Assembly: GCA_964016885.1 (NCBI GenBank)
Contig: OZ024751.1
Location: 44,020,001 to 44,084,000, forward strand
DNA from: Eledone cirrhosa
Taxonomy: Eukaryota
DNA length: 64,000 nucleotides
Reading direction: 5' to 3'
Shown here: in pieces, positions 43,129 to 50,572 of the stretch
Numbering within the stretch: the first letter of the stretch is position 1
Layout of the letters: the number at the start of each line of letters is the position of its first letter
Position numbers and translations under genes: made by a program
The notes under the pieces: generated by a model
The model's database searches: none
The model's input: the letters and a program-made list of their open reading frames with translations, nothing else
Told to the model about the DNA's origin: nothing

Positions 43129-43281
43129 TTAAACAACCCATTTGTGGCGCCTCCCCCCCTATTGGGGATTTCGATTGTTGAAATTGTTTGTTTTTATATT
43201 TTTTACACGACTGTATGTAAAATCCCCGGCATGTCTTTGTATTGTCCCCTTTCTTGTTGCGCCCTTGTGGCTAATAAAGAA

Positions 43282-43282
<1 letters not shown>
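43129..43282 (+). mobile_element. Tx1-like LINE 3'UTR fragment (same subfamily as 1506-1875)
   Basis: Aligns with 1723-1875; followed by (TATC)n. Confidence 0.8.
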
Positions 43283-43357
<75 letters not shown>

Positions 43358-43366
43358 GTCTATCTA

Positions 43367-44028
43367 TGCGACGAGGAAACCGTTGCACACGCATTGGTAC
43401 ACTGCTCGGGCATTGCTGATCTGTGGGGCTATGTCGAACAACTGCTGTCAAGGGTGGGACCGATCCGGTTGACCACCGAGTCTATTGTAACGATCAAGCC
43501 GCCTCCCCTCTTCAAAAACGAAGGAGAGGCGGTGTTTCTGTGCGTAATAGCCATGGCGAAAGAGGTTGTATGGTGGACGCGTCTGAAAGGACTGAGGTCA
43601 AACACCTTTCTCTCTGGCCAACAACTGGTCCGTTTCTACCGATATCATTTCGGAAGAAGGATCAGGATAGAGAGAGAGGTGCTGCACCCCAGCCGTTTTT
43701 ATGAAAGATGGGTGAAAGTGGCGAGAATGGCCCGTGTGAATGGGCCTTCACTCTACATCAGACTATAGGTGAGGAAGATGAAAGACCAAGGGAGCACCCC
43801 TTCTCTGTGCTCCTGAGGAAAAGGGTTGCACACTTTTTTCGGGGGTGTGTGCGACCCCCAAGGCGCCTCCTCTCTATTGAGGATTTTGTTATATATTTTA
43901 TTCTGTTATATTTTATTTTATTTTTATATTTTGTTATTGCCTCCTCCTTATTGAGGACGCCTTGTTTTGTAAATTCCCCCCATTGTACTTGTCCCACTTT
44001 TGATGCCCTGGTGGCAAATAAAAGAAAC
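43367..44028 (+). mobile_element. 5'-truncated Tx1-like LINE (ORF2 C-terminus plus 3'UTR)
   Basis: CDEETVAHALVHC...GPSLYIRL*; (TATC)n on both sides. Confidence 0.92.
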
Positions 44029-46643: not shown

Positions 46644-46875
46644 TATATCTATCTATCTATCTATCTCTGGGATGGACACACGCGTATAACTTGCTGAGTA
46701 AGTTCTGTTTAAATTTCTATAGAAATTCTTGTCTGATAACTTTAATTTTTGTACCATTTTGTAGAGGGACTGCCAGGTCAAACTTTGATCTGGTCAGTCT
46801 CTCAAAATATTCTACGCCTTTAGGCGAAATAGTTAAAAAAAGTTTTTTCTTGTTGAAAAGTCAATATTTTTTTAA

Positions 46876-48657
46876 ATGGCCGAAGCTTCTTCACCAAAAT
46901 TCGAAGGAGGAAAGGGGAAGATGAACTTACAGCTTCCCCCTGCCACTGTCACAGTAGCAGAGGTCAAGAAGATAGGTCAGCCAGAGGAAGAATTCTCTCC
47001 ACCTGTTAACCGACAACTTGACGTTACCATGGCAACAACCCAAAGAACCAACAGCAACAACAACAACAATGCGACGGTAGAAAACAACACCAATAACAAT
47101 AACAATAACAACAACAAGACCAATAACGGTGACAACAACAACAATGATAACAACAACACCACCAACGACAACAACAACACAAACAAACAAAATTTCTCCT
47201 TCGCCGAGACGACAAGGAAAACCCTCGACTATCTGCCAGTAGATATAACAAAAGCGAAGGAGCTACTGGCGGATGCGAAAAAATATATAGTGTACGGGGA
47301 AAATGGTTCATTCACAATCCATTCCCCCCCGGAACTAAAAAGCCAGAGACTCCTAAACACGGTCATGTTTAGGACAATCTCGAACAAAAGTAAAAAACCA
47401 GCTCAACCATCACAGAGCGAGATAGAGCTGGTTTTAAAAGACGTCATGAAGGACATCACCTTCATTCAGAAGGATAGACTCTACGGGAGTCTATCCATTC
47501 TCATGAAGGACAGGGACACAGCAGTGAAACTGTCCATCAAACCAATCACATCCACCGCATACACCTTCTACCCTACGTACATGGGTAGAAGAACACAAAA
47601 AATAAAAATCCACACCATCCTGCCGATTATGGACATATGGTGGGTTTTGACAGGTTTTCTGGACCTGGAGGATGACATGCTGGTGTCCATGGGAAAGGCA
47701 TCGGGTGACGCGTTCAGTGGAACGAGCCTCGAACTTGTAGTTCAAATGAGGCCCGAAAGGATCGCCCAGATCCCTGAACGCGTCATACTGGATGATCTAA
47801 CCTTCATCAACATTACCGTTGAGGGTAGACGGCCCTCGTGTTACCTCTGCGGAACCAGAGGTCACCTGAGGGCTGTCTGTCCCCAACTTAATAAGAAAAC
47901 CCCAATCCTGCCTACACCACCAACAACTGCACAACCAACACAATCACCACAACAACCACTACAAAAACAACCACCACAGCTCAAACCAAAACAAAACAAT
48001 GTCCAACCCATCCCCTCCACTCAAAAAACAAAAACAATTTCCAAAACACCCGTACCGCAAACACAACCCGAAAATATACCCCTCCCCTCCAACGCGGAAG
48101 ATGACCCTAGTTCGTCGTCAGACGAGGAGGAGCACTTCCACACAATCAAAAGAAAAAAAAGAAAACACACCTCAGACACACAAATGAAAAAAACCCCTCC
48201 CCAAAACATAACACTGACACCAACACAAAAGAGCTCACAACAGCAAACAAAAAACACCACACAAAAACAAAAACATGCATACACATACATAAATACAAGA
48301 AACAAAAAACTGTTAAACATTGTGTACAACAACAATCTAATAAAAACACAAGGGCCTAACTTCACCCAGGCAGGGGATTTCCCCCACCTCAAAATGATTA
48401 AGGCCCCACAGGACACCTATAAAACTTTAAAAAACAATTTTAAAGAGGACGTGGGTCCCCCCTGCGTCGGGCCCATTAACCGAGTCCTCCTAAAAAACTA
48501 TCCCACCCCCTCCCCAAACACCCTCACAACTCCAAGCTCCCCAACCACACAACACACTGATGCCCCCACACTTCCACAAACCACCACCCCACCCAACAAC
48601 CCATCCCCCACCCTAATGGAAATTGTGCAGCCCGATACCCGGGACGCAGAGAGGTAA
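46876..48657 (+). CDS. LINE ORF1p, gag-like nucleic-acid-binding protein, 593 aa
   Basis: Intact ATG..TAA frame; CCHC knuckle CYLCGTRGHLRAVC; Asn-rich N-terminal and Pro/Thr/Gln-rich C-terminal regions. Confidence 0.88.
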   Translation: MAEASSPKFEGGKGKMNLQLPPATVTVAEVKKIGQPEEEFSPPVNRQLDVTMATTQRTNSNNNNNATVENNTNNNNNNNNKTNNGDNNNNDNNNTTNDNNNTNKQNFSFAETTRKTLDYLPVDITKAKELLADAKKYIVYGENGSFTIHSPPELKSQRLLNTVMFRTISNKSKKPAQPSQSEIELVLKDVMKDITFIQKDRLYGSLSILMKDRDTAVKLSIKPITSTAYTFYPTYMGRRTQKIKIHTILPIMDIWWVLTGFLDLEDDMLVSMGKASGDAFSGTSLELVVQMRPERIAQIPERVILDDLTFINITVEGRRPSCYLCGTRGHLRAVCPQLNKKTPILPTPPTTAQPTQSPQQPLQKQPPQLKPKQNNVQPIPSTQKTKTISKTPVPQTQPENIPLPSNAEDDPSSSSDEEEHFHTIKRKKRKHTSDTQMKKTPPQNITLTPTQKSSQQQTKNTTQKQKHAYTYINTRNKKLLNIVYNNNLIKTQGPNFTQAGDFPHLKMIKAPQDTYKTLKNNFKEDVGPPCVGPINRVLLKNYPTPSPNTLTTPSSPTTQHTDAPTLPQTTTPPNNPSPTLMEIVQPDTRDAER

Positions 48658-48681
48658 GTGCCTTTTCTCTTCACCACCAAC

Positions 48682-50572
48682 ATGGCTATGCTAAGAGTAG
48701 GCTGTTTAAATGCGCGTGGCCTGGGCTCAACTTGGAAGCAAGCAATGCTTCTAAATGACCTCAGGTCACAACGTATAGATGTGATGGTTATTTGCGAGGC
48801 CCGGATCAGCAACGTGCGACAGCTGGCCCCCACCTTTGATGACTTTGAGATGCACGCATCTCTCTGTCAGCCTGGAGGTGGGGGTGGAGTTGTCGTTCTG
48901 CTGCAAAAACATCTGGGTCTCGCAACACAGATGGTACATTTGGACCCGGAGGGTCGACTAGTGGTTCTGGACCTTGGCAGTGGTAAAGGCGGAGCGTTTA
49001 GGTTGGTAGCCGCCTACGGCCCTTTCGGGTCAATGCGGCCGGACTTCTTCCATCGTCTGGAGACTTTTCTAGGGACGTCCCGCTCCTTGCTATTAGTGGG
49101 GGACTGGAATGGTATCCTAGATGCACGTTGGGACTACGTAGGGGCCTGCCCCGATAGAGAGGGGTGTAATAGCCTCAAAGGGTTAATCGGTCGATTTGAC
49201 CTGGCCGATAGATATCGACTAGATTTTCCGACTGCGCCAACCTGGACTTGGGCAAATCGTAGCGGATCATCTAGGTCGTACCTAGATAGGTTCTTAGTTA
49301 GAATTAAGGATAAGGAATTTTTAAGTTGTCCAAAAATGCGCATTGTTGGCTATTCAGACCACAAATTAGTGACCTGCATGGTCAACCTTGACAGAACTCA
49401 TAGACAGGGCCCCGGTTACTGGAAGCTCAACTTGTCCTTGCCGGCAAGTAGAGCCTACAGGAATCGGATTAGTACGTTAGTTAAGGAACGGTTGACTGGA
49501 GCGATCGTCAACAGCAGGTGGTGGGTATCTCTAAAGAGAGAGATTAGAGTAGTCTCGATAGAATTTAGTAAGGTTCTAGCTGCGGATAGGAATAGGAAGG
49601 AAAGGGAGCTAATAGATAGAGTAGAAGAGGCAATTAGAAGCGGCGACGTGGCCAGAGTGCTAGCGTCGAGAACGGCTTTGAGCCAGTTTTTCGACGCGAA
49701 GCACGAAGGCTGCGTTGTCCGAAGTAAAATACGTGCTCTAGGGAACGAGGGGACCAAAGCTGTTAGCTGGGCCCGCGTGACAGAGGCCAACAGTGGAACT
49801 AAATCCACCATCCGGTCTTTGCGAGACCTGGATGGACGGGCGATTCTTGAGCCTAAGCAGATGTGTGAGGCCTTTCAAAGGCACTTTGCCCGACTGTTCG
49901 GGAGGGGCGGGGAGCCGGTTGGGAACGTGGACTTCGGTCCATACCTCGACGGCCTGCCGCGCCTCTCGGACAGGGAGGCGAAGTCCTGCGAGGAGCCGAT
50001 TTCGGCCGCTGAGATAGAGGACGTGCTGAGCCAATGCGGCAAACGCAAATCCCCGGGTCTCGATGGTCTTCCTTACGAATTATATCTAGCTATGCCGGAC
50101 TTGTTCCCCGATCTCCTCGAGGCGGTCTACTGCAACTGGCAACAGAACGGGAGAATTCCCTGTACTGTGACCAAGGGCGTAGTCACGCTAGTGAGGAAGG
50201 ACGAGAACAAGGGGGACGAAATAAGTAACTTCAGGCCCATAACACTGCTAAATACAGAGTTACAGATTTTGGCCAAGGTGCTAGCAAAGAGGTTGGCGCT
50301 TGTCGTGGGCAACCTGGTGGGAGATGCGCAGACATGCGCTATCCCGTCCAGGTCCATCCATGACAACCTCCACCTCATGCGATACATCATAGAGAGGGTT
50401 GGGAACGAACCCGGCTTTGGTGGGGCTCTGATCAACTTGGATCAATCTAAGGCGTTCGATAGGGTCGACCATGGTTACCTGGATGCGGTGCTAGCGGCGG
50501 CAGGCTTCGGACCCGTTTTCAGGGGCTGGATCACTGCTATGCACAGCAGCCGCATCTGCTCTAGGGTCAAGG
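48682..50572 (+). CDS. LINE ORF2p, APE endonuclease plus reverse transcriptase (3' part lost in gap)
   Basis: APE motifs CLNARGL, ICE, GDWN, SYLDRF and SDH; GPGYWKLN linker typical of L1/Tx1; early RT motifs present. Confidence 0.95.

Follow-up and report, generated by a model that had tools for sequence, protein, structure and literature searches.

Why should five pieces of a long interspersed nuclear element (LINE) lie head-to-tail at positions 43,129 to 50,572 of a 64,000-nucleotide stretch of the Eledone cirrhosa genome, parted from one another by short arrays of TATC? The whole stretch, hereafter the window, comprises positions 44,020,001–44,084,000 of contig OZ024751.1 (C11 in our labels) within a 3.0-Gb assembly. 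An earlier note on the sequence had claimed nine pieces of a Tx1-like LINE in the window, from at least three variants of the 3' untranslated region (3'UTR), with TATC-type repeats at every visible 3' end and at all but one 5' end. Self-comparison of the window recovered all nine pieces where the note had placed them; the five-piece stack and a two-piece stack at 1506–3991 are both real, and three 3'UTR types (F1, F2, and F3) are present. Each of the eight 3' ends that can be seen consists of AATAAA(A)GAAA followed by two variable nucleotides and TATC, and eight of the nine 5' ends adjoin TATC-type DNA, the piece at 43129 being the exception, as claimed. Taking these pieces together with the genome-wide junctions described below, we consider it probable that a young radiation of L1-group LINEs takes pre-existing TAT(C>A)TAT repeats as its target, with a single orientation and a single phase of insertion, that the site is set by the endonuclease, and that a sister lineage behaves alike in (ATT)n.

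The family is an APE-type retrotransposon without long terminal repeats and belongs to the L1 group, as judged from its domain order, 5' truncation, fixed 3' end, and variable duplications. Natural full-length copies are about 5.7 kb long and carry open reading frame 1 (ORF1) and an ORF2 with APE and reverse transcriptase (RT) domains, the latter frame being unbroken in 13 of the 17 such copies listed. ORF2 matched the Pfam families PF03372, PF00078, and PF13966 (APE, RT, and zf-RVT) and no other family, and has no RNase H. It aligned with human L1 ORF2p (PDB 8sxt) over residues 12–865 with an E-value of 3e-48, and with R2 at only 3e-19, in a comparison that is strictly two-way, the remaining clades being absent from the PDB. 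The catalytic residues N, E, Y, GDxN, D, and SDH align with those of the L1 endonuclease (L1-EN). The placement among APE–RT LINEs of the L1 group made in the earlier note is thus borne out by the ORF2 domains and the alignment with L1 ORF2p. A CCHC zinc knuckle in ORF1 is a feature of the Tx1 clade, and the ORF1 of this element has one (CYLCGTRGHLRAVC, protein P0002). The label Tx1-like denotes likeness in anatomy and in this knuckle; kinship to named Tx1 references is not part of its basis, and none of the homologue matches listed bears the name Tx1. The closest named relatives came from Argonauta hians (66%, RT region) and Acanthosepion pharaonis (52%), and the ESM Atlas search gave generic APE/RT clusters only.

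Exact pattern matching, which was used for all genome-wide counts, found 1,924 occurrences of the 30-mer at the 3' end and 382 of the 25-mer at the 5' end. A sample was drawn by taking the first 100 of the 1,924 matches to the 3' end, which all lie on contig C1, and dropping L106, a duplicate of L105; the resulting 99 copies and a background sample both come from the first 160 Mb of that contig. Full-length copies made up 19 of the 99. Since the median identity of the sampled copies to the intact copy L128 was 99.1%, the F1 family is young. After GAAA and two further nucleotides, the sampled copies continued with T (97), A (98), T (96), C (81) or A (15), T (96), A (90), T (95), and C (76) or A (18), and TATC stood at positions 3–6 in 81 of them. 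Among 3' ends of the youngest family in the whole genome, 1,671 were followed by TATC and 242 by TATA. About 13% of young-family ends lie in TATA, and the site is TAT(C>A)TAT. The 5' flanks of the 99 copies were TATC in 54, mixed in 5, partial in 9, TA in 9, and other in 22 (5 of the latter being internal deletions or recombinants), and those of 30 full-length 5' ends were TATC in 21, mixed in 2, partial in 4, and other in 3. TA was present on both sides in 7 of the 99 copies. The exclusivity asserted in the earlier note, according to which no piece lies in (TA)n, therefore fails beyond the window.

The preference for TATC is nevertheless strong, since TATC arrays are far rarer than TA arrays in random DNA (6 vs 286). 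The background sample of 40 random 10-kb stretches (399 kb) contained these 6 TATC/GATA and 286 TA arrays, together with 147 CA/TG and 37 TATG/CATA arrays, all of at least 12 bp. TATC was preferred over TA about 570-fold per array, and at least about 260-fold if the array count of 6 is set to its upper Poisson bound. Kojima's rule regards an element as target-specific when one sequence type makes up more than 20% of its flanks (PMC4494074; this and all other papers are cited for the parts of them that were covered). The share was 81/99 for TATC, and 9,925 of 27,523 shared ends for the ATT target of the sister lineage. The collection of genomic junctions proposed in the earlier note yielded, in short, a fixed-phase TAT(C>A)TAT target with strong TATC specificity.

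To distinguish a target from a tail, the two flanks were compared in 94 resolved copies, five of the 99 (L085, L113, L121, L122, and L142) having been dropped because their 5' flank was own sequence, an internal deletion, or a recombinant. Perfect TATC of at least 8 nt was found on both sides in 50 copies, on the 3' side only in 14, on the 5' side only in 4, and on neither side in 26; in 9 of the 14 3'-only copies, TATC was seen by eye a few bases farther upstream. A filter for target-site duplications was passed by 19 of the 94 copies. In 9 of the 94, duplications of 14–22 nt began 0–2 nt past GAAA, and five of these (L026, L090, L097, L099, and L105) contain clear non-repeat letters. The other ten that passed the filter lie within compound repeats, far from the element end, and no interpretation is placed on them. 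A TATC tail is absent from copies located in satellites or TA arrays (L009, L010, L081, L097, and L105), and L081, L097, and L105 run directly into satellite or unique DNA. Because TATC flanks both sides, the duplications start at the element end, and the copies in TA and satellites are tail-less, TATC is the pre-existing target and not a tail, which upholds the earlier note on this point. LINEs that make their own repeat tails (L2/CR1/RTE type) have the repeat at the 3' end only and independently of the site. This type was ruled out by the 50 two-sided copies and the absence of TATC at TA and satellite sites. F1 copies (L073, L081, and L105–L107) sit at TATAT inside longer-unit satellites, where adjacent empty units show the pre-insertion site. 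One F1 copy (L130, C1:138806050) ends in GAAAC and poly(A) inside a (TAA)n array and has the sole poly(A) end among the 99.

Stacking directly behind the 3' end of another copy was observed in 29 of the 99 sampled copies, with spacers of 14–179 bp, and in 12 of the 30 full-length 5' ends. For comparison, 30 arrays were picked with the pattern (TATC)5V, irrespective of the element: 14 follow a copy, 19 touch one, and 11 are copy-free. All six TATC/GATA arrays in the random DNA were free of copies. The rate of stacking among copies with a TATC-type 5' flank (29/68) matched the rate at which the arrays follow a copy (14/30; Fisher p 0.83), so that no preference of the element for its own end is needed. 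Nor did arrays with a downstream copy prove significantly more prone to stacking (8/13 stacked) than the remaining arrays (6/17; p 0.27). Long TATC runs number roughly 35,000 in the genome, when the 5,141 ends of the (TATC)5V type are taken as about 28/191 of all end types, a fraction that comes from element-rich loci. At least 14,940 element ends are followed by TATC. As the match of rates indicates, stacking is the saturation of a rare target that is regenerated by each insertion, and about half of the long arrays already follow a relative. The head-to-tail stacking through target regeneration suggested by the earlier note is thereby supported, with mixed-family stacks at the rate expected from saturation.

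(ATT)n is the target of a sister lineage, which shares the 3' terminus of the TATC families and likewise stacks. Ends running from this terminus into (ATT)n first surfaced in the random 10-kb sample. The shared terminus TGTGGNWAATAAAGAAA occurs 27,523 times (reversed-pattern control, 12) and is followed by TATC in 13,269 cases, by ATTATT in 9,925, and by TCTCTC in 232; the ATT-type terminus (TGTGGTT type) is followed by TAT(A/C) at only 143 ends. Of 20 ATT loci, 9 had a 5' junction that could be resolved against the intact copy L270, and all 9 lie in ATT, 3 of them behind another copy; the remaining 11, which were truncated or interrupted or differed in ORF1, contributed no junction. L270 has an intact frame of 1,152 aa that is 68% identical to F1 ORF2, and the N-terminal APE domain of the lineage is 56–61% identical to that of F1. 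Two ATT copies (L262 and L263) diverge upstream of ORF2. In a quick tree (SH-aLRT support only, without a root test), the TATC families formed one clade (100), nested in a larger group (99) to which the ATT copies and the Argonauta protein also belong. On a direction of the switch from ATT to TATC the signals conflict: the quick tree sets the ATT copy L266 beside the TATC clade (SH-aLRT 97), but in 7 of 10 windows L266 is closer to L270, also an ATT copy. The idea of a separate (TC)n family was rejected, on the small number of TCTCTC ends and because the clusterable TC-followed ends fall mostly into TATC-family clusters.

The two lineages differ in loops on the endonuclease. The hairpin aligned to T192–S202 of L1-EN contains NRSG in all 50 TATC-lineage segments and xxIG (NRIG, KRIG, or NHIG) in all 15 ATT-lineage segments. 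A second loop reads SLCQPGGG in the TATC lineage vs SPSRPGSG or SVSRPGMG in the ATT lineage. Since the segments include overlapping loci and kin, this correlation counts as one evolutionary event. The S/I site of the hairpin aligns with P197 of L1, and the tip of the L1 hairpin, including this position, is described as bending towards the minor groove (PMC1950540). Judging from these loop sequences, the target switch likely resides in surface loops of the endonuclease. We regard as possible, if doubtful, the fuller picture of a living sister pair that switched between (ATT)n and (TATC)n via one or two loops (hairpin tip I/S; SPSRPGSG/SLCQPGGG), such that a loop swap would be a target swap, with a saturated TATC lineage multiplying its own niche and shaping a large share of long GATA microsatellites. 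In unnamed relatives (P0059–P0079 and P0114, ~50% identity) the hairpin loops, of 9–12 residues, are very diverse, which suggests that further target types may exist in related hosts.

LINEs are established to integrate through target-primed reverse transcription. Here the APE endonuclease would make a nick at GATA/GATA on the GATA strand and so prime reverse transcription there, from an RNA that probably ends just past AATAAA(A)GAAA and two nucleotides. A staggered second nick would produce the duplication of 14–22 bp seen in informative copies. Each insertion would divide one array into two usable arrays, and with rare arrays and tens of thousands of copies, mixed-family head-to-tail stacks would arise without recognition of the older copy. 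The sister lineage acts alike in (ATT)n, the switch probably lying in the endonuclease loops, as their correlation with the target suggests. For Tx1L of Xenopus, specificity is set by the endonuclease and a hairpin loop has been implicated (PMC1950540).

The main rival is priming assisted by the RNA: a loose endonuclease would cut any TAT-rich site, and UAUC repeats read through into the transcript (AUU in the ATT lineage) would anneal to the GATA strand once nicked. Base pairing by the RNA 3' end might contribute to target choice, and the fixed phase, the absence of poly(A) in 98 of 99 copies, and the excess of 3'-only over 5'-only TATC (14 vs 4) agree with it; a parent within a TATC array would provide the UAUC end. 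In addition, full-length 5' ends start ATCTCTGGG even behind non-TATC DNA (L032, L035, L039, and L043), which indicates that target-like letters are carried on the RNA, at least at the 5' end. However, the 242 ends in TATA pass from the two nucleotides straight into TATA without a C, and L081, L097, and L105 pass directly into satellite or unique DNA, so that pairing beyond about 3 nt is not required. The endonuclease of Tx1L is, moreover, sequence-specific by itself (PMC1950540). We judge RNA-guided priming as the principal explanation to be rather unlikely.

It is far less probable still that TATC is a tail written by the element, with 5' TATC arising only by insertion behind earlier copies or by expansion of tails. 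Many TATC arrays could be element-made, as 19 of the 30 long arrays touch a copy, and TATC is confined to the 3' end in 4 of 94 copies. On the other hand, of the 54 copies whose 5' flank is TATC, 24 are stacked and 30 stand behind no other copy, copy-free arrays exist (11 of the 30 sampled and 6 of 6 in random DNA), and neither the duplications that begin at the element end nor the TA and satellite insertions without a TATC tail accord with such an origin. This explanation is largely refuted. The weakest alternative, an assembly artefact beside the gap that ends the stack (44204–44834 is identical to 49942–50572 in 631/631 positions) or random landing with survival only in repeats, hardly deserves credence, because mixed-family stacks occur in 29/99 copies elsewhere and in the ATT lineage, and survival explains neither one orientation and one phase nor the avoidance of the commoner TA, CA, and TATG arrays by 99%-identical copies.

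Several points weigh against a pre-existing target chosen by the endonuclease. Non-repeat 5' flanks were found in 17 of the 94 resolved copies, and L074, L075, L127, and L131 carry TATC at the 3' end only; these two features fit an occasional RNA-borne tail or 5' deletions. The poly(A) end of L130 inside (TAA)n is an exception to the rule. For pure TATC sites no empty allele was observed, and duplications are unreadable inside perfect repeats. The (TATC)5V pattern, which demands a non-T base after TATC, is biased towards arrays cut by insertion. As to the loops, their correlation with the target reflects a single split, and the endonucleases of the two lineages are only about 60% identical. 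Grafting of the hairpin loop moved specificity only partly, and DNA shape was argued to matter over sequence (PMC1950540).

The stack itself, which lies on the forward strand throughout, begins with a 154-bp 3'UTR fragment of the F3 type, an older TATC family (43129–43282; 91% identical to 1723–1876), whose 5' flank is not TATC. Two nucleotides and about 21 TATC units (43283–43366) separate it from an older, 5'-truncated F1-type copy of 661 bp with the end of ORF2 and the 3'UTR (43367–44027; 95.8% to the young copy). After CA and about 22 units (44028–44116) follow a 57-bp 3' end of family F2 (44117–44173; 84% to 28156–28213), TC and seven units (44174–44203), and a young, 5'-truncated F1 copy of 2,440 bp (44204–46643) with RT and zf-RVT, the frame of which is open to a stop at 46381 and the 3'UTR of which ends AATAAAAGAAA without poly(A). 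TA and five units (46644–46665) come next, the last ATC of which may already belong to the element that follows. That element is the 5' part of a young F1 copy (46666–50572; 3,907 bp) with an intact 5' end, cut by an assembly gap of 200 N (50573–50772) that hides the 3' end of the stack, so that no 3' end of this copy is visible. Its ORF1 (46876–48657; 593 aa) has one CX2CX4HX4C knuckle and Asn-rich and Pro/Thr-rich tracts, and gave no Pfam match. Its ORF2 starts at 48682 with the APE endonuclease (to ~49392) and the beginning of the RT, and is open into the gap up to 50572; the endonuclease hairpin loop TWANRSGSSRS (49246–49278), aligned to L1-EN T192–S202 and with NRIG in the ATT lineage, is a candidate specificity determinant.

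The smaller stack consists of an F3-type 3' piece (1506–1875, forward), with a TACC array merging into TATC upstream, and a young 5'-truncated F1 copy with TATC on both sides (1904–3991, forward; 99.1% to 44544–46644). A 76-bp F2 3' end (28138–28213, forward) lies within a single TATC array. An F1-type copy on the reverse strand (62762–63908; 97.8%) sits within a compound tract of TATATC/TATG, and a repeat of about 15 bp bounds it on either side. The window further contains a near-perfect long inverted repeat, resembling a miniature inverted-repeat transposable element, with arms of about 65 bp inside TA repeats (51289–51430; a similar one is in L160 at ~1070–1200), and two tandem repeats, a 310-bp unit in 3.7 copies at 100% identity (34759–35914) and a 31-bp unit in 32 copies at 96% (40226–41214).

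Within the family, a mosaic subfamily (L063, L066, L082, L086, L089, L097, L112, and L124) is 97–99% identical to F1 in the RT and the 3' half and 86–89% in the endonuclease, with a divergent 5' part and an unchanged target. A small hairpin, CC-CYTGT-GG, lies just upstream of AATAAA in the 3' termini of all families (alignment A2: window 46609–46638, L201:1484–1513, and 18 more), and its closing pair is G-C in the families that target TATC, whilst most ATT copies have A-U there. The covariation score of 0.304 was attained in 2 of 500 shuffles, for a stem of 4 pairs only and with a score inflated by kinship; this hairpin could be an RNA signal for the RT. Horizontal transfer is not claimed: near-identical words of the element were present in 20 runs of 16 studies (17 organism labels), which low-level contamination or close kinship explains, and no RNA holder was found among the listed runs sharing such words. 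Of four runs examined, X1 is very deep, X4 contains mostly relatives at 85–95%, and X5 shallow pieces; in X22, raw reads from organism F, sampled at about 1 in 100, left the coding part uncovered, although 0.49 of the words were shared by another run of that organism.

TRAS/SART arrays are a known case of tandem piling within a target that is regenerated; Waldo, Mino, TRAS, and SART form part of the insect R1 clade. Dong has a target akin to that of the ATT lineage, and its label Dong-R4 suggests that it belongs to R4. Its target, (TAA)n (PMC3812793), is the same duplex. R4 falls in the restriction-like-endonuclease clade (PMC4640811), and Dong-R4 and L1-Tx1 elements are both listed as recently active in Octopus vulgaris (PMC13282606). 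Identity of the ATT lineage with Dong/R4 is ruled out by its N-terminal APE domain, and since that domain is accompanied by 68% identity to F1 ORF2, the common target is a convergence. Waldo (ACAY) and Mino (AC) are alike in APE-type repeat targeting but have other targets (PMC3812793). Kibi at (TC)n, Koshi at (TTC)n, and a crocodilian Tx1 at (TTCC)n/(TTTC)n resemble the present elements as APE-type LINEs in microsatellites, related families of which have shifted repeat units (PMC4494074). Compared by target alone, however, the elements here use TATC/GATA and ATT, and with only 232 of 27,523 ends followed by TCTCTC an identity with Kibi/Koshi was rejected. In Xenopus Tx1L, specificity is ascribed to the APE domain and the T192–S202 hairpin is implicated (PMC1950540). 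The target of Tx1L, however, is a single complex one in Tx1D and its loop is 11 residues long, whereas the loop here has 9 residues as in L1 and the specificity is leaky (~13% TATA). Human L1 ORF2p is the best solved relative, with one domain order and the catalytic residues kept, although L1 nicks TTTT/AA and has a poly(A) end, in contrast to the 98 of 99 copies here.

The microsatellite targets named in the parts covered of PMC4494074, PMC3812793, PMC13282606, PMC1950540, PMC3747384, PMC4640811, PMC8967140, PMC8869645, PMC3124438, and PMC5035012 are TC, TTC, TTCC/TTTC, ACAY, AC, TAA, and TG. No GATA/TATC or ATT target for Tx1 was found in this literature, a scope outside which lie Repbase and the full target list of PMC4494074, either of which could overturn the novelty; two cephalopod papers count L1-Tx1 families and give no target in the parts covered. 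As far as searched, the TATC/GATA and ATT targets are new, and the class of mechanism is already known. Two targets, one converging on that of Dong, are thus added to the Tx1-type list. Microsatellite targeting by APE-type elements has been called 'not well understood' (PMC3812793), and loop grafts between distant enzymes gave partial answers only (PMC1950540). Specificity becomes directly testable with two closely related lineages that differ in target and share a 3' terminus, that both retain intact copies (L128 in TATC and L270 in ATT), and that supply more than 20,000 junctions. Many GATA microsatellites in this genome are flanked by LINEs, which bears on the design of markers and the annotation of repeats in cephalopods.

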